DNA from: an uncultured Methanosarcinales archaeon
GTDB taxonomy: Archaea; Nanobdellota; Nanobdellia; Woesearchaeales; DSVV01
Assembly: GCA_964593285.1 (NCBI GenBank)
Contig: CAZQHZ010000012.1
Location: 1-38,010 of the forward strand
Direction: 5' to 3'
Length of the DNA stretch: 38,010 nt
A program made the position numbers and the translations under genes. This document shows positions 37 to 10,937 of this stretch, in pieces (position 1 is the stretch's first letter; every line of letters begins with the position of its first letter). A model generated the notes under the pieces. It saw nothing but the letters and a program-made list of their open reading frames with translations, made no database searches and had not been told where the DNA came from.

Positions 37-495
37 ATGAAAACAAAACATATATTTGTCCCTGCTTTAGATGTTGGAGAATTAGTTCCGTTTTTGGTTA
101 AAGAAAAGAATAATTTAATTGATTCTATAAAAGAACAAAAAAGAGCAAAAACAGAATTAGAAAAATTTATAGAAATTCTTCAAAAAAATTTTAAAGAAAA
201 AATATATTATATAGGTATGGATATTGATGAGAAAACTTATGAAAGATTTATTTTTGAAAAATCTGGCTTTTTAGAAGTAATGATTGAATCACCTTTAGCT
301 TTAGTTGCACATTTTATCAAAGAAAAAAGAGCAAAAAATTTTCATGTAGCACTAAAAAAATCTTTATTTGAAATACTACCAAAAAATAAAATAAGTGAAT
401 TATTTATTAATTCTATTGAAGTTCAAACAGAAAAAGAACAAATGCTTACATATTATAAATGGAATAAAATGAAAAAAATAAATAATCCATTTTAA
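37..495 (+). CDS. Hypothetical soluble protein, paralogue of the N-terminal domain of 613..1308
   Basis: 152-aa ORF that aligns by eye with the next ORF (RAKTELEKFI/RAKEELAQFI, ERFIF/EKFIF, KRAKNFHVALKKSL/KRADKFNKALKKTL). No family recognised. Confidence 0.75.
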   Translation: MKTKHIFVPALDVGELVPFLVKEKNNLIDSIKEQKRAKTELEKFIEILQKNFKEKIYYIGMDIDEKTYERFIFEKSGFLEVMIESPLALVAHFIKEKRAKNFHVALKKSLFEILPKNKISELFINSIEVQTEKEQMLTYYKWNKMKKINNPF

Positions 496-612
496 AGTTT
501 TAATTTAATAAAATTGTTCTAATAAAATATTTAAGTAAAAGGCAATTATATTGGTAATAAAAATCTTTAATTTTAATAACTTTTATATATATAAAGTGTA
601 TTAAATTGTTTT

Positions 613-1308
613 ATGAAGGGTTTTAATAAATATAAATCACAAGAATTTTATACTATTTCTATTACAGATGTTGAAAATATTATTAGTTTTTCAATAAAAG
701 ATACTAATCAATTAAAAGATAATTATCATGAAGAAACTAGAGCTAAAGAAGAATTAGCACAATTTATTTCTACACTACATTCATATTATCATGAAGAAAT
801 AATTTATTTAGGTGAAGAAAAAACATATGATAAACATGTTGAAAAATTTATATTTAATCATGGCGGAGCTATGGAGATAATTTTAGAAAATCCTGTCGTT
901 ATAAAAGCTAATTTTGTTAATAAAAAACGAGCTGACAAATTTAACAAAGCATTAAAAAAAACCCTAAAATTAATTATTAAAGAACATCCAATAAAAGATA
1001 TATTTATTAATGAAATTGATGTTGAAAAAACAATTAAAGATCCAATTAATATTGAAAAATGGATGAAAATTAAACATATTATTTTAAAAAAATCTATTAT
1101 TTATTCATTTATTGCATTGTTTATTTTTATAATATTTGAAATGATTAAAGCAATTTTAAGTTTTATTTCATTAAATTTATTTGAAATTGAACCAACAACA
1201 AAATATTTAATTATTTCAAGTATTATTAGTGCAACTATTGTTGCATTATTGTTTGAACCAATCAGAAAATTTATTGAACAATTAATCAATAAATATTTTA
1301 TGAAATAA
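613..1308 (+). CDS. Hypothetical membrane-anchored protein (same domain as 37..495 plus two C-terminal TM helices)
   Basis: 231-aa ORF with hydrophobic segments SIIYSFIALFIFIIFEMIKAILSFISL and YLIISSIISATIVALLF. TATA-like TTTATATA about 25-30 nt upstream. Confidence 0.78.
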   Translation: MKGFNKYKSQEFYTISITDVENIISFSIKDTNQLKDNYHEETRAKEELAQFISTLHSYYHEEIIYLGEEKTYDKHVEKFIFNHGGAMEIILENPVVIKANFVNKKRADKFNKALKKTLKLIIKEHPIKDIFINEIDVEKTIKDPINIEKWMKIKHIILKKSIIYSFIALFIFIIFEMIKAILSFISLNLFEIEPTTKYLIISSIISATIVALLFEPIRKFIEQLINKYFMK

Positions 1309-1319
1309 AATTTTGGAGG

Positions 1320-2090
1320 TTGATTAAAATAGCTATAAAAAAATTAGAAAGAGTAAAAACAAAAATTAAAGGTTTTGATGAATTAGTTGAGGGCGGTATT
1401 CCAAAAGGACATAGTGTGTTAGTTACTGGTGGGCCTGGAACTGGTAAGAGTATTTTTTGCATGGAATTTTTAGTAAATGGTGCAAAACAAGGTGAAAACG
1501 GTTTATATGTTTCATTTGAACAAAATGACGAAGATATTAAAATGCAAGCATTACAATTTGGATGGGATTTAAATGAACTTGAAAAAAAGAAAAAACTAAA
1601 TGTTATGTCTATTAAAGTAAAAGATATTAATAAAAAAACTATTGATAAAATTAAATCTTTTGCTAAAAAAAATAATATTAAAAGATTAGTTATTGATAGT
1701 TTATCAACATTAATTGTTAATGCACCAATTTATGAGGATTTATCTAAACTTGGAGTTACTGATTATTTGTCTAATAGAACTTTTTACTCACCTCCAATTA
1801 TTGGTGATAAGGTTGTAAATAGATTTTTGTATAATTTTATTGATGAAATAAAATCAATTAAAGATTGCACAACATTAATTGTGGCTGAAGCTAGTGAAAA
1901 TGGTATGAGTAACGAAATTATTTTGGGTGAGTATAGCTGCGATGGAGTTATTAAGATTACTTTTGAGAGCTTAGGTGGTGAGTATTCACGGTCTTTGATT
2001 GTTAGAAAGATGAGAATGACTAAGAATAATGATGATGTCCATCCAATGGAGATTAGCAATAAAGGAGTTATTTTACATAGTTTAGGGTGA
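1320..2090 (+). CDS. Single-domain KaiC-like / RecA-superfamily ATPase
   Basis: GFDELVEGGIP N-terminal motif, Walker A GGPGTGKS, YVSFEQ, Walker B RLVIDS, C-terminal RKMR. Start codon uncertain (TTG 1320 or ATA 1329). Confidence 0.9.
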   Translation: MIKIAIKKLERVKTKIKGFDELVEGGIPKGHSVLVTGGPGTGKSIFCMEFLVNGAKQGENGLYVSFEQNDEDIKMQALQFGWDLNELEKKKKLNVMSIKVKDINKKTIDKIKSFAKKNNIKRLVIDSLSTLIVNAPIYEDLSKLGVTDYLSNRTFYSPPIIGDKVVNRFLYNFIDEIKSIKDCTTLIVAEASENGMSNEIILGEYSCDGVIKITFESLGGEYSRSLIVRKMRMTKNNDDVHPMEISNKGVILHSLG

Positions 2091-2094
2091 TAAC

Positions 2095-2928
2095 ATGAAT
2101 AATTTTATTTTTCCTTTTTTTAAAACTACAAAATTAAGAAAGCATAATATTAATTACTTAGATACATATGCTAAAAGGAAAAAAAATAATAAAAATATTT
2201 TATTATTTATTCCTGGAGCTGGTGGATGTGTTTACAATTGGAAACATCAAATAGAATTTTTTTATAAAAAAGGATATAGAGTTATTTCATACGATCCAAT
2301 TTCACAAGGTCAATCAGATTTTGTTAAGGACTATAATTTTGATGAACATTTTAAAGATTTTCTTGCTTTATTAGACTTTTTAAAAATCAAAGAAAATTTA
2401 ATTTTGATTACGCATAGTTCATCAACACAAATTGCACTAAGATATATTAAAAATAAAGACGAATATAACGGAAGATTAAAAAAATTAGTATTAATTAGTG
2501 TTTCTTTAAAAGAAAATGATCCTTTTTGGTGGAAATTATTTATTTCAATGCCACGGTTTATTTTAAATAAAATATATAAGAAATTATCAAAGAAAACTAA
2601 TTTAATTCATTATTTATATTTTTCAAAAAAAACACCACGAAAAATTGTTGTTGAATTTTTAAATGAAAATAATATTCCAAATATTGAAACATTACTAATT
2701 TTTAAAACTTATTGGTATTTTGATGCAGAGCCATGGATTAAAAAATGTGATATTAAAACACTAATATTATCTGGAAAAGAAGATATATTAGTTAAAACAG
2801 AAAATGATATAGAAGTATCTAATACTTTTATAAACTCAAAATTAGAATTTATTGAGGATGCAGGGCATATGTGTTATTATGAAAAACCAGATGAGGTTAA
2901 TAAAAAAATTAATAATTTTATAAAATAA
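2095..2928 (+). CDS. Alpha/beta-fold hydrolase
   Basis: FIPGAGG oxyanion region, YDPISQGQS, nucleophile region THSSS, GKED acid residue, DAGHM histidine followed by EKPDEVN. Confidence 0.85.
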   Translation: MNNFIFPFFKTTKLRKHNINYLDTYAKRKKNNKNILLFIPGAGGCVYNWKHQIEFFYKKGYRVISYDPISQGQSDFVKDYNFDEHFKDFLALLDFLKIKENLILITHSSSTQIALRYIKNKDEYNGRLKKLVLISVSLKENDPFWWKLFISMPRFILNKIYKKLSKKTNLIHYLYFSKKTPRKIVVEFLNENNIPNIETLLIFKTYWYFDAEPWIKKCDIKTLILSGKEDILVKTENDIEVSNTFINSKLEFIEDAGHMCYYEKPDEVNKKINNFIK

Positions 2929-2930
2929 AA

Positions 2931-4076
2931 ATGGCAATTATTGATAATACAAAAAAAAAAGAAAATAAAATTTCAAAATTTTTTCTACATCTAGTTGCAT
3001 ATGGTGGATTTAATGTTCAAAAAGGAATTATTAATGTATGGGGGGATCCTTGCTCTTTTTTTCCAATTAATGCGTTTGTAAAATTTCAAAAACAAATCTA
3101 TGATAAAATAGGTTATAAAAAAACAGCTGAATTATTTTATTGGCTTGGAAGATTAACAGGAAGAAATGCTACAATCATGTTAATAAAAAGATTTGGTGTT
3201 AAAAAAGAAGACATCCCTAATTTTGTGAATGGTGCAACCCAAGATGGTTTTGGTTATATGAAAATACAAGAGTATGATTTAGATATAGGATATGGAATTG
3301 TAACTGGAGAAAATTCAACTTTTGCAATTGAATATAAAAAAGAATTTTCAAAACAAAAAGAAGTTCAAGACCACTATATAAGAGGTATTTTATCAGGTGG
3401 TGCAGAACCATTATTTAATTTACATATTAAAGTTATTGAAGAAGAATGTATGGCACAAAGTTTTAAAAAATGCAAATATGTTTTCTCAAAATTAGAAAAA
3501 AAACCAATTTTTTCTTTTTTTAAAAAAATAACTTTAAATGAAGATAAAATTATTGAAAAAACTAAAAATCTTTCTTTAAAAAGACAATCTAGTTTTAAAA
3601 TAATTAAAGAGAAATCTATTAAATTTGGTGATGGTAGTTTTGTTTTAGATAATTGTATTGGAATTAATATGATGAATTATGCAAAAGTTATTTTAGATGA
3701 AATTTTAAAACAATTATTTCCTAATGAATATGAAAAAATATTAAAAGAATTTGCATATAATTGTATATATTCAATAAAAGATCGATTGATTAATAAAAAC
3801 ATTAGACAAATATTAAAAGAATTGGAATTGTTTGGATTTGGTGTATTTGAAGTTAGAGCAATGGTTGGAAAAAAATTAATTTTATTTAATAATAATAATC
3901 CAAACCCAAAAAATTATTTAAGCTTATTTAAAAAAGAACCTTTTTGTATTGATTTATTTTCTTGTTTTTTGTTAGAATCAGCATTTAAAATAGTTAATAA
4001 AGAATGTGAAGTAATTGAAAAAAATTGTATTGCAAAAGGAGATAAAGAATGCATATTTGAAATTACATTTAAATAA
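2931..4076 (+). CDS. Tandem V4R (4-vinyl reductase-like) ligand-binding domain protein
   Basis: Two repeats ending EEECMAQSFKKCKY and EKNCIAKGDKECIF, each preceded by a GFG motif; DHYIRGILSG in the first repeat. Confidence 0.8.
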   Translation: MAIIDNTKKKENKISKFFLHLVAYGGFNVQKGIINVWGDPCSFFPINAFVKFQKQIYDKIGYKKTAELFYWLGRLTGRNATIMLIKRFGVKKEDIPNFVNGATQDGFGYMKIQEYDLDIGYGIVTGENSTFAIEYKKEFSKQKEVQDHYIRGILSGGAEPLFNLHIKVIEEECMAQSFKKCKYVFSKLEKKPIFSFFKKITLNEDKIIEKTKNLSLKRQSSFKIIKEKSIKFGDGSFVLDNCIGINMMNYAKVILDEILKQLFPNEYEKILKEFAYNCIYSIKDRLINKNIRQILKELELFGFGVFEVRAMVGKKLILFNNNNPNPKNYLSLFKKEPFCIDLFSCFLLESAFKIVNKECEVIEKNCIAKGDKECIFEITFK

Positions 4077-5019
4077 GATTTGATAGTCTAAAAACACGAT
4101 ATAAATCCAATATAGGTAATTTATTTTTATGCAAATAAAATGTTGGGTGTTCTTCACCAATAAATCTTGATTTTGTAAAATCTAAGCCCTTAAAATTATA
4201 AAACATATTCCCTTTATTGTAAACAAAATTAAAAATTTTTTTTAAATTTTTACTTTCATTTGGGAAAAAGATGTTTTGTTTTAAAGGTGATAAACCTAAA
4301 TTTATATATTTATTTTCATTTTTAAAAGTATTAAATCCTTCATTAATCAATGCATAATAAATACCTTGCTTAAAATCTTTTGAAGAACGACAAATATTTG
4401 GGACATAACCAATAATTTTTTGATTTGAATATAATGGATCAAAAAAAATTAATCCAATTGGTTTGTCTTCCTTATATGCAAAAAATTTTCGTGTATCTTT
4501 TTCTATCATATTCATTGGTCTTACTAAAAAGGAAATTTCTTTTGATTTTGTTTTTCGTGTATTTAACCATTCATTAGATAAAAATTCATAATTTTTTTCA
4601 GAAGGATTTTCTTTAATAATAATGTTATCTTTTTTTATTTTATTAATAGCAGTTCTAATATTTTGTTTTTTTTTGCCTTTTAAATTCCAATAAGAAGGAA
4701 TAATTGTTTCAATACCCATTTGAGTTCCAAAAAAATTAAATTCTGTTGTTAATAAATCTCTTAAATAATTATTTGTTTGCAAAAAACCTACTTTTTTATT
4801 TGAATTAATAAATTCTCCAGTTATATTTTCCATATTATCATATGAACAAACAGGATTACCAAGAACAAATAATTTATTACCTGTTTTTTTATATGCAATG
4901 TACCCTTTGTCTTTTACATCAAAATATTGCATTCCTGGCTGTAATGTAGAATAAGCCATACAATGACTTCCATACTCTTTTAAGTATTCCATCCGTTCTT
5001 CTAAACTGAATTTTGTCAT
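4069..5019 (-). CDS. Stand-alone DUF2156 (MprF C-terminal / VlmA-like) aminoacyl-tRNA-dependent transferase
   Basis: YSTLQPGMQYF, LGNPVC, LKGKKKQNIRTAIN, FFDP, NLGLSP and FYNFKGLDFTKSRF match the LPG-synthase C-terminal GNAT fold. No TM domain. Confidence 0.82.
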   Translation of the reverse strand: MTKFSLEERMEYLKEYGSHCMAYSTLQPGMQYFDVKDKGYIAYKKTGNKLFVLGNPVCSYDNMENITGEFINSNKKVGFLQTNNYLRDLLTTEFNFFGTQMGIETIIPSYWNLKGKKKQNIRTAINKIKKDNIIIKENPSEKNYEFLSNEWLNTRKTKSKEISFLVRPMNMIEKDTRKFFAYKEDKPIGLIFFDPLYSNQKIIGYVPNICRSSKDFKQGIYYALINEGFNTFKNENKYINLGLSPLKQNIFFPNESKNLKKIFNFVYNKGNMFYNFKGLDFTKSRFIGEEHPTFYLHKNKLPILDLYRVFRLSNLI

Positions 5020-6119
5020 TTTTTCATGTAAGGTTTTATTATTTCATTCTTTACAAATTCTTCTAGCATATATGAAAATAATTCTCTATTCATTCCAATT
5101 TTTTTATGTGTTTTTAATGCAGAATCTGTATTTTTTGTATCCCATGTTGGATCATGATTTAAACAATATGGATCAAATGGTTTAACAAACCTAATAGCTC
5201 GTCTTTCAATTGGTGTTTGATTTTCAATTTTTTCTTTTGTATAATCTATTCCTGAAAATTTTAATGAATTTTCAACACCATACTTTACATCATCACCAAC
5301 AATATTATTACTAGTTAAATGATATGTTTTTTTAATACAATCTGAATCTATAATATCAGTAATCATTCCAACAACATCATCAATACATATAAAATTTTTC
5401 TTAGTTTTAGGATGGCCTTTTAATCTTAAAGGAACTTCTTCAATTTTTCCAGAATTGTAATGCTCTAAAAAGTTTTTTTCATTTCCAAAGTGTTTTAATA
5501 ATGAACTATAAATTCCTAAAACATAGCCATAAATCATCCGCATTTCCCCTTGGGGATCTCCTGTTTTAGAATCACCAATAACAATAGATGGTCTAAAAAT
5601 GGTATATGGTATATCTAATGCTCTAACTTTTTTTTCACAATGATATTTTGATTCTTCATAGCTATTTTTAAATCCTTTATTTTCACATAAACCATCTTCT
5701 AAAATAACACCATTATTATTTCCAGAAACATATGCAGTTGATACAAAAAATAAATTTTCTAAATTATTATTGTTTTTTGCAAATGATAAAATATTATCTG
5801 AGCCAGAAATATTAGTTTTAATAATTTCATCTTTTTTTCTTTCATCAAAACTAGTTGCCGCTGCAAAATGCCAATATTTATCACATTTTGATACAATTTT
5901 TGAATCTTTATAATTTAAACCAAATGAAGGAAAAGTTAAATCTCCACATACAAAATTAATTCTTTCAGGTGATGCCCATTTTAATCTATCTTTAATTGAT
6001 TTTTTGGATGCTTCAGATCTTACAAGTAAATGAAATTCATCATCTGTATTTTTTAATAAATACTCAAGCATATTTCTACCCAAAAACCCATTTGCTCCAG
6101 TTATAAATGTTTTTGCCAT
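5016..6119 (-). CDS. Extended SDR oxidoreductase (fatty acyl-CoA / thioester reductase-like)
   Basis: TGANGFLG Rossmann motif, GDLT, HFAAATSF, VSTAYVSG, catalytic YEESK, FRPSIVIG. Four-nt overlap with the DUF2156 gene indicates translational coupling. Confidence 0.88.
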   Translation of the reverse strand: MAKTFITGANGFLGRNMLEYLLKNTDDEFHLLVRSEASKKSIKDRLKWASPERINFVCGDLTFPSFGLNYKDSKIVSKCDKYWHFAAATSFDERKKDEIIKTNISGSDNILSFAKNNNNLENLFFVSTAYVSGNNNGVILEDGLCENKGFKNSYEESKYHCEKKVRALDIPYTIFRPSIVIGDSKTGDPQGEMRMIYGYVLGIYSSLLKHFGNEKNFLEHYNSGKIEEVPLRLKGHPKTKKNFICIDDVVGMITDIIDSDCIKKTYHLTSNNIVGDDVKYGVENSLKFSGIDYTKEKIENQTPIERRAIRFVKPFDPYCLNHDPTWDTKNTDSALKTHKKIGMNRELFSYMLEEFVKNEIIKPYMKK

Positions 6120-6279
6120 AATTTATTTAAAAGAACATAAGTTATATATAAATATTTCGTTACTTGATAGTGAAAAATTATAGATCAAATAATTAAGTGT
6201 TTTTTTCATAAAGCTATTTTTCTAAGAAATTTTATAAATATTTTAGTTATAACCTAAACTAATAATCTTTAAATTATTT

Positions 6280-6337
6280 TGTTATAATGTAATATAACAC
6301 TTTTCTAAAAAGTAATATAGTACAATATAACACTTTT
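6280..6337. promoter_or_regulatory. Putative operator: TGTTATA-N6-TATAACA inverted repeat plus 14-bp direct repeat
   Basis: Perfect 7-bp inverted repeat at 6280-6299. AATATAACACTTTT occurs at 6291-6304 and 6324-6337. Lies between divergent genes. Confidence 0.4.
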
Positions 6338-6454
6338 TTAAAATTTGTTAAGTTGATTTGACAAAAATACTTTTATTTTTTTGAAAAATAACCACTTATT
6401 TTTTCCAAAACAAAAACTTTATTAATATCAAAATATACATATTACTACTATAAG

Positions 6455-6778
6455 ATGATTAGAACGCCAACTATTGAACAAATTGTTTTTGCATATAAGG
6501 AAGGTCTTGATTTTGAAGTTTCAAATAAAAAAACAAACATAAAAGGATATTTTTTCCCAGACCTTTATCTAGTCGAGTTATATATAAAAAATATTGAATC
6601 AAAAAAAGATTATTTAATAACAATAGGACATGAATTTATGCATTTTATTAAACCAAAATATTCTGAAGAGAAAGTTGAAGAAATTGCACAACAAATTGTA
6701 GAAAAAACACCTGAAATTATTTATTTTATGAAAGATATTTTTAAAATTCCAAATTATAAAAAATCCATTTATAATTAA
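6455..6778 (+). CDS. Small HExxH zincin-like putative metallopeptidase
   Basis: TIGHEFMHF followed by EEKVEE, a possible third ligand; TATA-like TTTATTAA upstream. Confidence 0.6.
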   Translation: MIRTPTIEQIVFAYKEGLDFEVSNKKTNIKGYFFPDLYLVELYIKNIESKKDYLITIGHEFMHFIKPKYSEEKVEEIAQQIVEKTPEIIYFMKDIFKIPNYKKSIYN

Positions 6779-6809
6779 TTCTAATTTAAAAAAATAAACA
6801 AGTGAAAAA

Positions 6810-7532
6810 TTAAATTTTAACACAAATAAAAAGACCACGGTTTTTTGAAAAACCATTTTTTAAATATTTAGCTTTAAGATTATATTTTTCCATTATCTTT
6901 AAAGTTTTATCAATTTCAAATAATCCAAGTTCATGTCTATCAATAAAATGCAAAACTGTTTTATTTTTTTCTGCAATTAAATAATGCATATCTAAAATTG
7001 AAACATTTTTTTTTATATTTGAAACAGATAATCTTGCAATTTTTATTTTATCATCTTCATATACAGTCATATGCGGCAGACCTTTTTTATAAATAGCCAT
7101 AGTAAACCATGGCTCAATTATTAAAACACCGCCTTTATTTAAATTAAGAGAAAAGTTTTTAATTGTTTTTTCTAAATTTTTATAAGTTTTAACATATCCA
7201 ATTGAACTAAATAAACAAGTTATAATATCAAATTTTTTATTTAAATTAAAATTAATCATATCAGCTTTTTTAAAACTAACATCTTTTACATTTTTCTTTG
7301 CAATATTTAAAATGCCTAAATTTAAATCAATTCCAATACAAGAAAAATTATTTTTTAAATAACTTAAATGTTTTCCAGTGCCGCATCCAACTTCAAGTAA
7401 ATTATTACCATTACTTTTTTTATATTTTAAAATTAATTTAACAAGTTTTTCTGATTCTTTCATATAATCTTTCCAAGAATAAATTAAATCATAATATTTT
7501 GCTAAATCTGTGTATAAAGACTTTTGTTTCAT
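6810..7532 (-). CDS. Class I SAM-dependent methyltransferase (resembles TylM1/DesVI-type N-methyltransferases)
   Basis: LLEVGCGTGKHL motif I, ADM, FDIITCLFSSIGY, GGVLIIEPW. Confidence 0.88.
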   Translation of the reverse strand: MKQKSLYTDLAKYYDLIYSWKDYMKESEKLVKLILKYKKSNGNNLLEVGCGTGKHLSYLKNNFSCIGIDLNLGILNIAKKNVKDVSFKKADMINFNLNKKFDIITCLFSSIGYVKTYKNLEKTIKNFSLNLNKGGVLIIEPWFTMAIYKKGLPHMTVYEDDKIKIARLSVSNIKKNVSILDMHYLIAEKNKTVLHFIDRHELGLFEIDKTLKIMEKYNLKAKYLKNGFSKNRGLFICVKI

Positions 7533-7577
7533 TTTAAGATATATTAATAATTATATATTTAAATTTTTATGAAAAAA

Positions 7578-7910
7578 TTAACTAATTATTTTAATTATTT
7601 TTGAAATAACATCAAAATATTTAGCTTTTGATATTTTACAAAATTTTTTTAATATTTGTTTTTTAGATGCTGTAAAAATCATATTGCATCTAATAAAACT
7701 ATCAATAATTAAGGAACCACCAATTGTTTCATCTTTTTTTAACTCTATACAATTTTGATCTTTTTTAATATTTTTTGAAGTAATTTGACACAAAATTATA
7801 TCATTGTTAAATTCATTAGAAATAACTAAACAAGGTCTAACTTTTCTATTAGTTAAATCTGTATAAGGAAAAGGAAATAAAACTACATCTCCTTTTGTAA
7901 ATGTTTCCAT
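7578..7910 (-). CDS. PemK/MazF-family toxin (mRNA interferase)
   Basis: KGDVVLFPFPYTD, KVRPCLVIS, LCQITS. Likely start is ATG at 7910 (METFTK), overlapping the antitoxin end; the ORF track starts at 7937. Confidence 0.88.
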   Translation of the reverse strand: METFTKGDVVLFPFPYTDLTNRKVRPCLVISNEFNNDIILCQITSKNIKKDQNCIELKKDETIGGSLIIDSFIRCNMIFTASKKQILKKFCKISKAKYFDVISKIIKIIS

Positions 7911-8131
7911 GCTTCTTCCTCTTCTTTTAATAACCAATTTTTTGCAAGATTTTCTTCTGATGCTTTATATGTTAAAAAACCATTTAATGACTTTTCTTCA
8001 TTTTCAAAAAGTTTTTCTCTTAATAATTCTCTAATAAAATCTTGTAAATTGTTATATCCTTTTATTTTTGCATAGCTTTTTGCTGTATTAAAAATTTCAT
8101 CAGATAATTTTAGATTGATTTGAGTACTCAT
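7883..8131 (-). CDS. Putative antitoxin, ribbon-helix-helix N-terminus
   Basis: QINLKLS beta-ribbon, LQDFIRELLREKL helix, acidic EEEEAW tail; directly upstream of and overlapping the MazF-like gene. Confidence 0.75.
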   Translation of the reverse strand: MSTQINLKLSDEIFNTAKSYAKIKGYNNLQDFIRELLREKLFENEEKSLNGFLTYKASEENLAKNWLLKEEEEAWKHLQKEM

Positions 8132-8256
8132 AGATATTATAAAATATCAATAAATATATAAATTTTTACAAAAAAACACAATAACCTTTTTAAATAAATA
8201 ATAAATCCAATGATTAAAAAACCGCAAAATTTGAGTTTTTTAGGAGGAAATTAAAA

Positions 8257-8538
8257 ATGCCAGAACCAAGATTTAGGTCAAGAAAACTTAGGAGAATAAA
8301 GGTAACTACTCCAGGCGGTGAAAACAAAACTGTTTATGAAAAAAGAAAACCTTCAAAAGCAGTTTGTGGAAACTGTAAAAAACCTTTACATGGAGTGCCA
8401 AGGGAAAACCCTGCAAAAATGAGAAATATGCCAAAAACCAAAAAAAGGCCAGAAAGACAATATGGTGGAGTTTTATGCAATATTTGCTCACAAAAAAAAG
8501 CTGTTTTAAAAGCAAGAGAGGATGAAGAAAATGTATAA
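8257..8538 (+). CDS. rpl34e: 50S ribosomal protein L34e
   Basis: VTTPGG, CGNC and CNIC zinc ligands, RPERQYGGVLC; AGGAGG Shine-Dalgarno upstream. Confidence 0.95.
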   Translation: MPEPRFRSRKLRRIKVTTPGGENKTVYEKRKPSKAVCGNCKKPLHGVPRENPAKMRNMPKTKKRPERQYGGVLCNICSQKKAVLKAREDEENV

Positions 8539-8857
8539 TGTTGGAAGAATTTGCATAAAAACAGCTGGAAGAGATGCAGGTAACTATTGTATGGTTATTG
8601 AACAATTAGATGATAATTATGTTTTAATTGATGGTTTAACTAGAAGAAAAAAATGTAACATTAAACATTTAGAGCCAACTAAAAAAATTGTTAAAGTAAC
8701 AAAAAATGCAGATACAAAAACAGTATTAGATGCTCTAAAAAATGAAAAAATTACAGTTAAAGAGAAAAAAGAATCAACTAAAGAGAAAAAAGAAAAACAA
8801 CAAAGACCAAAAAAACAAAAAGTTAAACGAGAAAAAGAAGTTAAACAATCTAAGTAA
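8531..8857 (+). CDS. rpl14e: 50S ribosomal protein L14e with Lys/Glu-rich tail
   Basis: VGRICIKTAGRDAG, YVLIDG, RRKKCNIKHLEP. Start at ATG 8531 or 8522. Confidence 0.93.
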   Translation: MYNVGRICIKTAGRDAGNYCMVIEQLDDNYVLIDGLTRRKKCNIKHLEPTKKIVKVTKNADTKTVLDALKNEKITVKEKKESTKEKKEKQQRPKKQKVKREKEVKQSK

Positions 8858-9884
8858 AAAAAGAATCTAATGATTTTTGATTTTTATTATTAAATTTTTT
8901 TAATTTTTCTAATTGTGAATTAATTCTATCAAATGAAGAATCATGATTTTTGCACATAATTTCAATTATTTTATCATAATTTATTTCTTTAAAATCTAAA
9001 CTATAATCGTCTGTAACTTTTGTTTTTTTAAATGCATAAAAAACATCTTGCCATGAAAATTTAAAATGTTCATCCCATTTTATTTCTTTGAATAACTCAT
9101 CAAAATTATTTTTATGTTTTTTTACTAAAATTAATGCTTTTTTTGGACCTATTCCTTTAATGCCACCATAATTATAATCAGTTCCTGTAAGCATTGCAAT
9201 AACTATTAATTGATTTATATCAATACCTAAAAAATTTAAATTTTCAGACAAATTAACTAATTCTATATCTATTGATTTATAAGCTGGAGAATTTGCAATT
9301 TTTTTCTTTTTTGTAATTGATAAATTTCTAATAATTTTTGGAGATTCAAATAATAATGCATCATAGTCTTGTGAAACAACTGCATATGCATCATTTTTTT
9401 TAACCATATGTGCAGCTTGTGCTTCTCCTTCTGATGGTGCTTGAACTATTGGTAAGCCAAATGCTAAAATTAATTCTTTTGCTTCATCTACCATTTCTTT
9501 AGTTAATCTAGAAGTTCGTTTTGCAAATTTGTTCATAAGCGATATGTCTTCTATTTGCTTTGCTTGATCGTATTGTTTTTGTGCATTTATTTTTAATTCT
9601 TTTCGTCTTTCTTGCTCTTTTTGTTTTAAAAGAGGTGGTTTTCCATCAAAAACATAAACTAATTTAATGTTTTTTTCAAGTAAATTAACAGTTCTACTAA
9701 ATAAACCAACTAAATGACTAGTAATGTTGTTATTTGAATCAACTAAAGGAGATCCATCTTGCTGGCGTATTGTTGTTAAAAATTGATATAATATATTATA
9801 TGTATCAATTACAACAATTTTATTATTTAATTGATCTATTTTAAATTCATTTTTTTTTATTAAATTATTAAATTTAACTCCCAT
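8850..9884 (-). CDS. fen: Flap endonuclease 1
   Basis: MGV start, YQFLTTIR, VFDGKPP, APSEGEAQAA, SQDYDALLF, GTDYN, GIGPKKA, C-terminal PIP box QKSLDSFF. Confidence 0.97.
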   Translation of the reverse strand: MGVKFNNLIKKNEFKIDQLNNKIVVIDTYNILYQFLTTIRQQDGSPLVDSNNNITSHLVGLFSRTVNLLEKNIKLVYVFDGKPPLLKQKEQERRKELKINAQKQYDQAKQIEDISLMNKFAKRTSRLTKEMVDEAKELILAFGLPIVQAPSEGEAQAAHMVKKNDAYAVVSQDYDALLFESPKIIRNLSITKKKKIANSPAYKSIDIELVNLSENLNFLGIDINQLIVIAMLTGTDYNYGGIKGIGPKKALILVKKHKNNFDELFKEIKWDEHFKFSWQDVFYAFKKTKVTDDYSLDFKEINYDKIIEIMCKNHDSSFDRINSQLEKLKKFNNKNQKSLDSFFT

Positions 9885-9905
9885 TATAAAAACCTTAATT
9901 TAATT

Positions 9906-10937
9906 TTATAAACCACATACAACAACATTAGTATATTCTTTTTCTAATGATTCTTCAGCTTTTTTCATTAATTCTCCTGAAATTAATAATAAAACAGGTA
10001 ATTTTTTTGTCTGTCCCATTACAAAAATTGATGCAATATCGCTTTCATTTAATTTCTTTTTATTTTTTGCACGACAATAAAATTTAATATCACCAATAGC
10101 AGAAGGTATTTTTAAATAATATTCAAGTTCACTATTTTTTCTAATTAATTTTGAATTTAATACTAAAATATTATTTTTTTCAAAAAAAGATATTGCCTTT
10201 TTATGAAATTCATCATCAATATCATCTTTAAAATTTAATTTTTTTTGTATATTTTCATTATTTTTTTTGAAATTTTTTTCGTTTTCTTTTATTTGTTCAT
10301 TTGATTCTTCATTTGATTTTTCTTTTGTATTATCTTTAATAGAATCTTTTTCTTTTAATTCTTCTATGTTTTCTTCTTGTCTTTCTTGTTGTTTTTCTTG
10401 CTCTTTTTGTTGTTCTTTTAATTCTTCATCATCTTTATTTTTTTGGTTTTGTATTTTTTGTTCTTCATTATTGTTTTCTTGTTTTAAAATATCAGAATTT
10501 GAAAAATATCTTTTTTTAATTATTTCTTCTGTATCTTTTAGTGAAAGTAAAAACCATTTCCAAAATAATTTTTCAGAATTATTTATTGTAACTTTAATTG
10601 GCTGTGCAAAATCTTTTATTTGTCTTAGTGAAAACCGTAAAAGAGGTGTTTGTTCTTCATCTAATAAAACTAATTTATGTTTTAATAAATCATATGCTTG
10701 TTTATCTTTTTCATTTAAATAATTTGAATAATTAACTAGTTTATAGTTTTGTTCTAAAACATAATATAGAGGGCTTGTTCCAACTTTTAAATTTGAAACA
10801 CATAATTTTTTTGATTTAACTAGTTCTGATAAAAATGCACCAATAATTATAGTATTTTGATTAAAATTTTTTGTTAATTGAGCTGGAACACTAGGGCCAT
10901 TATATTTTATAAATTCTACAATCTTTTCTTTATCCAT
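9906..10937 (-). CDS. Hypothetical protein (HTH-like N-terminus, Glu/Lys/Asn-rich linker, alpha/beta C-terminal domain)
   Basis: 343-aa ORF co-oriented between endA and fen; low-complexity charged centre. Confidence 0.75.
   Translation of the reverse strand: MDKEKIVEFIKYNGPSVPAQLTKNFNQNTIIIGAFLSELVKSKKLCVSNLKVGTSPLYYVLEQNYKLVNYSNYLNEKDKQAYDLLKHKLVLLDEEQTPLLRFSLRQIKDFAQPIKVTINNSEKLFWKWFLLSLKDTEEIIKKRYFSNSDILKQENNNEEQKIQNQKNKDDEELKEQQKEQEKQQERQEENIEELKEKDSIKDNTKEKSNEESNEQIKENEKNFKKNNENIQKKLNFKDDIDDEFHKKAISFFEKNNILVLNSKLIRKNSELEYYLKIPSAIGDIKFYCRAKNKKKLNESDIASIFVMGQTKKLPVLLLISGELMKKAEESLEKEYTNVVVCGL

Follow-up and report, generated by a model that had tools for sequence, protein, structure and literature searches.

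A conserved four-gene KaiC–V4R–DUF2156–SDR module in a small-genome archaeon and its possible role in making and sensing an amino-acid–lipid conjugate

The DNA considered here (hereafter, the window) is a stretch of 38,010 nucleotides, positions 1 to 38,010 of contig CAZQHZ010000012.1 in assembly GCA_964593285.1, deposited as an uncultured Methanosarcinales archaeon and placed by GTDB in the Woesearchaeales. Close to its beginning lie the four genes that are the subject of this work. Two are on the plus strand and encode a single-domain, RecA-superfamily KaiC-like ATPase (positions 1320–2090; PF06745, E 1.3e-53) and a double V4R protein of 381 residues (2931–4076; PF02830, two stretches). The other two are on the minus strand and encode a stand-alone DUF2156 (LPG_synthase_C) protein (4069–5019; PF09924, E 7.2e-38) and an extended NAD_binding_4 short-chain dehydrogenase/reductase (SDR) of the thioester-reductase or fatty-acyl-CoA-reductase-like type (5016–6119; PF07993, E 7.2e-38). 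The V4R and DUF2156 genes end in a tail-to-tail overlap of 8 nt, and the SDR gene leads into the DUF2156 gene with a 4-nt translational overlap. The plus-strand pair is separated by an alpha/beta-hydrolase gene (2095–2928; PF00561, E 5.7e-19), with gaps of 4 nt from KaiC to hydrolase and of 2 nt from hydrolase to V4R. The window has a GC content of 22%, and the genome is 1.18 Mb long (96% complete, 38 contigs), which, together with its Nanoarchaeia-labelled kin, is consistent with the reduced, probably host-dependent archaeon supposed in the initial annotation made from these letters alone. The domain calls of that annotation were correct, and all the genes it named were found where it had placed them.

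The V4R family to which the window protein belongs is small, as a word-indexed search of 5.8 billion proteins returned 34 members. Twelve of its loci were examined: the window; L005, L006 and L007, which are contigs from a sister genus (L007 belongs to G022, a relative of the same family); L008, from the 0.7 Mb genome G432; L019, from G274; and six metagenome contigs (L012–L017). All the counts that follow are restricted to loci in which the relevant DNA was readable, which downstream of V4R means at least 300 bp and left nine loci. A DUF2156 gene was found downstream of V4R in the nine of them, as the next gene and convergent in eight, and as the second-next in L006, where a GNAT-like open reading frame (ORF) sits between both. 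The SDR gene adjoins the DUF2156 gene in six of seven loci (the window, L007, L014, L017, L057 of G274 and L108 of G432), and KaiC is upstream of V4R in eight of nine. The twelve loci span 22–55% GC, their proteins are 26–62% identical to those of the window, and their flanks are unrelated, with, for instance, eRF1, ScpB and a glycosyltransferase in L014, FIST in L007, or a rhomboid protein and a pilus ATPase in L008. Because it recurs in genomes so divergent, the arrangement is more than chance. KaiC, V4R, DUF2156 and SDR are a conserved, linked unit of four genes, and the plus-strand and minus-strand pairs occur together wherever the DNA could be read. The initial annotation had named, as an outcome that would refute it, a failure of the two convergent units to co-occur in any other genome; this was not what was observed.

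In a 401-genome sample of the phylum, the V4R family occurs at full length only in the window genome (G000), where it is the sole V4R gene, and in G274. PF09924 is present in 33 of the 401 genomes, with BLAST-detectable kin of the window DUF2156 protein only in the same two, and no KaiC, V4R or SDR gene was found within 1.5 kb of the other 28 PF09924 loci of the phylum. Some plasmid matches were considered as further cases of the same pairing and rejected, with 25–28% identity and a position beside NAD(P)/FAD oxidoreductases. In L014, a second set lies 3′ of the module (7520–10091), formed by a single V4R gene together with a further two KaiC genes, of which one has a 180-residue N-terminal extension.

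The DUF2156 protein (316 residues, no transmembrane (TM)-like segment) scored 130.8 bits against PF09924 (cut-off 27.5) and matched the lysyl-phosphatidylglycerol synthase structure 4v36 over residues 11–288 (E 1e-12), and also the LpiA/MprF structures 6lv0 and 6lvf. It is homologous to the MprF domain that carries out the aminoacyl-tRNA-dependent synthesis. It is not a bifunctional MprF, as it is without the N-terminal flippase domain and reached 61.8 bits with NF033480, the cut-off being 600. The acceptors of characterised DUF2156 relatives are phosphatidylglycerol, diacylglycerol, glucosyl-diacylglycerol and ergosterol. According to the review PMC6103681, characterised enzymes of this family move the aminoacyl group from aminoacyl-tRNA to a lipid hydroxyl, and the bacterial genes for aminoacyl-phosphatidylglycerol synthases (aaPGS) are found in the same operons as hydrolases and are controlled by sensors.

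The nearest relatives of the window enzyme (45–53% identity) are more than 335 stand-alone proteins, of which the named members are bacterial. In a quick-search, unrooted tree, from which no direction of transfer was inferred, 40 sampled nearest relatives formed one tight clade, with the nine V4R-linked rows outside it on long branches and the rows of the window and L012 nearest to the bacterial clade. A relative of 473 residues, P0052, labelled by JGI as an ActR/RegA-family response regulator, is 49% identical to the window DUF2156 protein and is fused to a response-regulator receiver domain. This fusion is a precedent for regulated DUF2156 activity, and it hints that phosphorelays control the stand-alone enzyme clade in such hosts.

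The SDR scored 130.6 bits against PF07993 (cut-off 20.1). Its best PDB matches were the terminal reductase domain of MxaA (4u7w, 4e-13), a polyketide synthase chain (8v1x) and a fatty acyl-CoA reductase (7eoz), and its TGxxGxxG, ST and YxxxK motifs align with those of 4u7w. The description of this protein as thioester-reductase-like thus holds, the MxaA domain being the closest structure and the motifs being kept, with a score below the cut-off of the TIGR01746 subfamily (91.1 versus 213 bits). The SDR stands alone, and the module contains no gene for a carrier protein. Thioester reductases yield aldehydes or alcohols.

The identity of these two enzymes could also be read in terms of a non-lipid natural product: the DUF2156 protein would aminoacylate a soluble hydroxyl or amine coming from the reductase, and KaiC–V4R would be a regulator or a self-protection sensor. 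It agrees with this that the best structural relatives of the SDR are terminal reductase domains of nonribosomal peptide synthetases and polyketide synthases, and that VlmA, a soluble relative from valanimycin biosynthesis, uses seryl-tRNA. Polyketide assembly lines, too, can contain DUF2156 domains (PMC3870968). However, the module conserves neither a carrier protein nor an adenylation domain nor any further tailoring gene, and the ligands with which V4R domains are associated are hydrophobic (PMC2253512), so that such a product is considered distinctly unlikely.

Concerning the double V4R protein, its score against PF02830 was 35.3 bits (cut-off 31), in two stretches, and a profile search matched MJ1460 and the sensor domain of MopR. 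The predicted model is of good quality (predicted local distance difference test, pLDDT, 89.3; predicted template-modelling score, pTM, 0.89). The best Foldseek matches of the first V4R module were the domains with which MopR, PoxR and DmpR sense phenol (E about 2e-7, TMt 0.73–0.79), followed by Bet3/TRAPPC3 at E 5e-5, including a palmitate-bound entry, and by MJ1460. The fold is thus that of ligand-binding sensor domains, as in the phenol sensors MopR and PoxR and in the palmitate-binding Bet3. Among 35 family members, residues E170, C173 and C181 do not vary, and the E-x2-C-x7-C spacing that they form in the window protein is that of three of the zinc ligands of MopR. The protein consists of two V4R/Bet3-like modules, predicted to bind ligands. 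In proteins of the MopR type, a V4R-like sensor domain gates an ATPase in cis. More generally, PMC2253512 regards V4R domains as binding hydrophobic ligands and as signalling either in cis or in trans.

The KaiC-like protein scored 182.2 bits against PF06745 (cut-off 26.6). It is not of the clock type, since it has a single domain in 256 residues and reached 89.5 bits with TIGR02655, well under the cut-off of 546; the window genome contains three clear KaiC copies. Residues G37, P39, G40, T41 and K43 (Walker A), E67 and D126 show no variation among 25 KaiC proteins of the cassettes described next. By our own assignment of residues to motifs, Walker A, Walker B and the catalytic glutamate are intact.

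A wider set was formed by more distant V4R genes, single (about 220 residues) or double (about 400 residues), which occur in 36 further genomes of the phylum. From these, 29 loci were fetched, two of them from genomes flagged as unpublished (G394 and G284). KaiC was found inside the locus in 26 of the 29, nearly always directly upstream of V4R. KaiC→V4R is therefore a generic cassette in this phylum. Pfam scans of 70 adjacent ORFs from 28 loci gave as neighbours a FeeM-type N-acyl-amino-acid synthase (PF21926) in 12 loci, one of them in G284; a class I methyltransferase in 10, sometimes fused to FeeM; and radical SAM and ThiF proteins in three loci each. Among the loci L025–L044 are those KaiC→V4R cassettes that converge on FeeM-like synthases; a class I methyltransferase often accompanies these synthases or is fused to them, and PAS, radical SAM or ThiF genes are next to some.

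The relationships among the V4R proteins were studied in a tree built on their first V4R module (35 rows, a quick search with long branches). The ten DUF2156-linked rows and one row of unseen context formed a single clade with SH-aLRT support of 98, and eight of the 12 FeeM-linked rows fell in a different one, so V4R clades track the type of the neighbouring enzyme. Across all cassettes, the KaiC proteins are 37–62% identical, and, since their motifs are also invariant, the ATPase is conserved while V4R diversifies with the adjacent enzyme.

These data bear on whether the two gene pairs have any functional coupling, as they might instead co-travel only through transfer as one block. The V4R and DUF2156 proteins of the window are both closest to those of L012 rather than to those of genomes of the same family, which points to lateral movement. 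Against mere block transfer, the genes keep their order and orientation where the proteins are about 30% identical, over a GC range of 22–55% and with different flanks in each locus, and the tracking of enzyme type by V4R clades extends across the phylum. Uncoupled co-travel is thus regarded as very improbable.

The main rival explanation is one of lipid handling, in which V4R would extract membrane lipid or present it to the soluble DUF2156 enzyme, replacing in this way the membrane domain of MprF, and KaiC would provide ATP-driven turnover. In its favour, the DUF2156 protein is without a membrane segment, and the isolated synthase domain of MprF reportedly fails in vivo, having no access to membrane lipid (PMC8131360). 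The resemblance of V4R to the palmitate-binding Bet3, and the fact that the V4R and DUF2156 genes are immediate neighbours in eight of nine readable loci, also fit. On the other hand, the same cassette adjoins enzymes of soluble substrates (FeeM-like synthases and methyltransferases), V4R is most similar in structure to sensor domains, and the bacterial DUF2156 relatives far outnumber the V4R family. A role of V4R in lipid delivery is accordingly held to be rather unlikely.

The remaining genes of the plus-strand run and of the surroundings do not share the conservation of the four core genes. Among the seven loci showing the stretch between KaiC and V4R, the hydrolase is present in two, the window and L007, and it matches only generic alpha/beta-hydrolase families. 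A search of 61 related genomes gave just one close orthologue, in the same position in L007 of G022 (46% identity by tblastn, 45% by BLASTP), the other matches in these relatives being 26–41% identical. The hydrolase is thus a lineage-specific accessory and not a core part as had been proposed. The class I methyltransferase gene (6810–7532, minus strand), described in the initial annotation as lying nearby, is indeed there, 690 nt from the SDR gene and with an ORF of the opposite strand in between. It is not conserved with the module, as no such gene adjoins the SDR in L007, L014 or L057, the three other loci readable beyond the SDR.

In another rival reading, both genes would be integral to the circuit of synthesis, sensing and degradation put forward in that annotation. 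It can be said in favour of the full circuit that the hydrolase gene lies within the KaiC–V4R operon, with the very short gaps given above, that its orthologue keeps the same slot, and that pairs of synthase and hydrolase are known for aminoacyl lipids (PMC6103681). Nevertheless, a hydrolase found in two of seven loci and a methyltransferase missing beside the SDR in three leave little probability for a circuit in which both are essential.

Upstream of KaiC, the single novel-domain membrane protein of the initial annotation corresponds really to two paralogous plus-strand genes, both accessory. ORF1 (37–495) encodes a soluble protein of 152 residues with one novel domain, without any Pfam or NCBIfam family, which aligns to the N-terminal domain of ORF2 (613–1308). 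The ORF2 product (231 residues) has the same novel domain plus two C-terminal TM-like segments (residues 155–190 and 195–218); the run encodes no other membrane protein. The tight spacing reported for the plus strand was confirmed from ORF2, which is 11 nt from KaiC, to V4R (gaps of 2–11 nt), and does not extend to ORF1 and ORF2, which are 117 nt apart. An ORF2 homologue, 36% identical, is divergent and upstream of KaiC in L007.

The ORF1/ORF2 domain occurs in 24 of the 401 phylum genomes, and a search over 1.84 billion proteins gave 114 representative clusters with it. KaiC or V4R was found within 1.5 kb in seven of 22 other loci of this family, or in eight if one weak match is included; one of those loci lies in the unpublished genome G394. 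Stand-alone proteins of this type are often encoded near KaiC or V4R. The predicted model of the domain (pLDDT 88.5) gave no PDB match at E ≤ 1e-3 with Foldseek, its best VIA-align Z was 7.4 (Med18/20), within the stated background of the tool, and the protein atlas gave no usable match for it. The domain is also the C-terminal tail of the 13 methionine-starting long proteins listed (687–1548 residues; for instance P0329, P0336, P0341 and P0344), all with an N-terminal hydrophobic segment and with a TM-like helix ending 0–62 residues before the domain; the N-terminus is absent from a 14th, P0377. Ig-like domains were found in six of the 14 long proteins scanned. Given its place as a tail behind a TM-like helix, with Ig-like domains in some of the proteins, it is probably the cytoplasmic domain of single-pass surface receptors.

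On the other side of the module, the 335-nt region 5′ of the SDR gene contains a 14-nt direct repeat in two exact copies (6291–6304 and 6324–6337), 33 nt apart, which may be a control site. No third exact copy exists in the window, where the repeat is not enriched elsewhere either (seven matches at two or fewer mismatches versus 5.3 expected). A scan for sigma-70 promoters gave 70 sites versus 75.5 expected, a result uninformative for an archaeon. The ORF located between the SDR and methyltransferase genes (6455–6778, plus strand, 107 residues) matches no Pfam family; it contains an HExxH-type motif (HEFMH) and may encode a small metallopeptidase-like protein. Beyond the methyltransferase there are a MazF/PemK-like toxin gene (7578–7937, minus strand; PF02452, E 5e-14) and an ORF of 82 residues, a possible antitoxin (7883–8131, minus strand), which overlaps the toxin gene from upstream. 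Both resemble a type II toxin–antitoxin pair and adjoin the gene for FEN-1, the archaeal flap endonuclease (8850–9884).

The module proteins gave no meaningful match to known anti-phage defence families in PADLOC, which gave weak P-loop matches for KaiC (E 1.1e-5 and 1.5e-4) and, for the neighbouring methyltransferase, a match to a generic SAM-methyltransferase domain (mad2, E 5.2e-13). The sequencing runs containing this DNA were microbial-mat metagenomes from two studies, one of them possibly the source of the window, and no RNA run with this sequence turned up among the runs listed.

Taking everything into account, we tentatively prefer to interpret the four genes as a make-and-sense module, a reading that we hold as plausible without calling it probable. 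The enzymes would make an amino-acid–lipid conjugate, and V4R would bind this compound or its precursor and gate KaiC. In detail, the SDR would reduce an acyl thioester or a carbonyl to give a hydroxyl acceptor, onto which the DUF2156 protein would move the aminoacyl group of an aminoacyl-tRNA, so that a hydrophobic alcohol or lipid becomes esterified with an amino acid. This assignment of roles follows from combining the chemistry of DUF2156 enzymes on lipid hydroxyls with a reductase of a type making alcohols: the SDR would supply the alcohol and the DUF2156 protein would esterify it. The lipid would be bound by one or both V4R pockets, and ligand-bound V4R would alter the ATPase activity or the phosphorylation state of KaiC, as in the cis gating of MopR, PoxR and DmpR. 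That V4R sets the state of KaiC is suggested by V4R domains binding hydrophobic ligands and by the same fold gating an ATPase in MopR. KaiC would then feed back on the pathway or relay the signal onward, and the compound could be either an internal cue of membrane status or a released signal. In the lineage of the window, the hydrolase of the KaiC–V4R operon would add turnover, and the ORF1/ORF2 domain would link the unit to the membrane.

Several observations weigh against the make-and-sense interpretation. As to the output, no helix-turn-helix or other DNA-binding family was detected with Pfam or NCBIfam in any module protein. As to the chemistry, the Epimerase family matches the SDR at E 2.9e-18, and the enzyme could, judging from this match, act on a sugar nucleotide. 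As to the arrangement, the two units are convergent, hence not co-transcribed; L006 has a GNAT-like gene where the SDR would be expected; L012 lacks KaiC in the 1 kb upstream of V4R and has a divergent ORF there; and the SDR and DUF2156 genes of G274 are convergent instead of tandem. The pairwise identities of V4R and DUF2156 are weakly correlated (r 0.39, Mantel p 0.04, nine loci), and the loci are not independent samples, some belonging to small-genome archaea that are related to each other and the rest to metagenome contigs of uncertain origin. Finally, the nearest DUF2156 clade, with more than 335 proteins versus 34 in the V4R family, far outnumbers the latter, so the enzyme clearly works without V4R elsewhere.

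If the make-and-sense interpretation is right, tRNA-dependent lipid aminoacylation would be extended to DPANN-type archaea, which depend on host lipids. Lipid aminoacylation is known so far from bacteria and fungi, and from methanogens as homologues only; literature searches gave no account of DUF2156 enzymes in DPANN archaea. The recurrent link of KaiC–V4R, throughout the phylum, to enzymes that join amino acids and lipids suggests a general rule rather than a one-off association. In a broader version, the small-genome archaea of the phylum would have a family of lipid–amino-acid signalling systems with interchangeable synthase sets (DUF2156 and reductase in the module, a FeeM-like synthase with or without a methyltransferase in other loci), each with its own V4R clade and all with a common KaiC readout. 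This version, which we regard as doubtful, would provide an archaeal counterpart of the pairs of autoinducer synthase and receptor, possibly acting between symbiont and host. Of the signalling proteins proposed for archaea, KaiC-like ATPases are the most widespread, and to our knowledge almost none of them has an established input or output. The module is a concrete and expressible test case for them, as it brings together a KaiC ATPase, a ligand-binding partner and a pathway of guessable chemistry.

The comparison with known systems shows likenesses in the parts of the module and differences in their combination. The sensors MopR, PoxR and DmpR (PDB 5kbe, 5fru and 6iy8) share with the window V4R protein the sensor fold, and the E-x2-C-x7-C pattern is kept in the latter. 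In contrast to them, sensor and ATPase are separate proteins in the window, the ATPase is of the RecA/KaiC type instead of AAA+, V4R is duplicated, and there is neither sigma-54 nor DNA-binding output. The module also differs from a signal pair of the LuxI–LuxR type, as it is without a receptor carrying a DNA-binding output.

With respect to the enzymes, the bacterial MprF/aaPGS systems with the hydrolases AhyD, VirJ and PesT have in common with the module the PF09924 catalytic family and, in two loci, a hydrolase nearby. The window enzyme is different in that it has no membrane or flippase domain, its partner is a thioester-reductase-like SDR, its host is an archaeon, and the KaiC–V4R cassette takes the place of two-component control. 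In the fungal aspartylation of sterols, a DUF2156 enzyme, ErdS, reportedly aminoacylates the hydroxyl of a lipid other than a phospholipid and a dedicated hydrolase, ErdH, reverses the reaction (PMC7334510). The likeness to the window is in the DUF2156 family and in the predicted aminoacylation of a hydroxyl; ErdS, however, is fused to an aminoacyl-tRNA synthetase, and its system is without KaiC, V4R or a reductase partner.

Comparable, too, are the KaiC–V4R–FeeM cassettes of the same phylum, with an orthologous KaiC (41–57% identical to that of the window), a convergent enzyme gene, and an enzyme, FeeM-like, that likewise couples amino acids with acyl or lipid groups. The window differs from them in its enzymes, with a predicted aminoacyl-tRNA-dependent O-aminoacylation and a reductase, and in its V4R protein, which is duplicated and belongs to a distinct clade. 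Makarova, Galperin and Koonin reportedly described archaeal KaiC-like ATPases as ‘signal transduction hubs’ (mBio, 2017). Like those hubs, the window has a single-domain KaiC-like ATPase encoded beside a small sensor-type protein; unlike them, its cassette is tied to a defined enzyme pair, DUF2156 and SDR. No description of a KaiC–V4R–DUF2156–SDR module was found in the literature searched, which did not include that 2017 paper. KaiC signalling cassettes and tRNA-dependent lipid aminoacylation are each of a known kind, and what appears to be new here is the combination of such a cassette with a predicted aminoacylation of that type.

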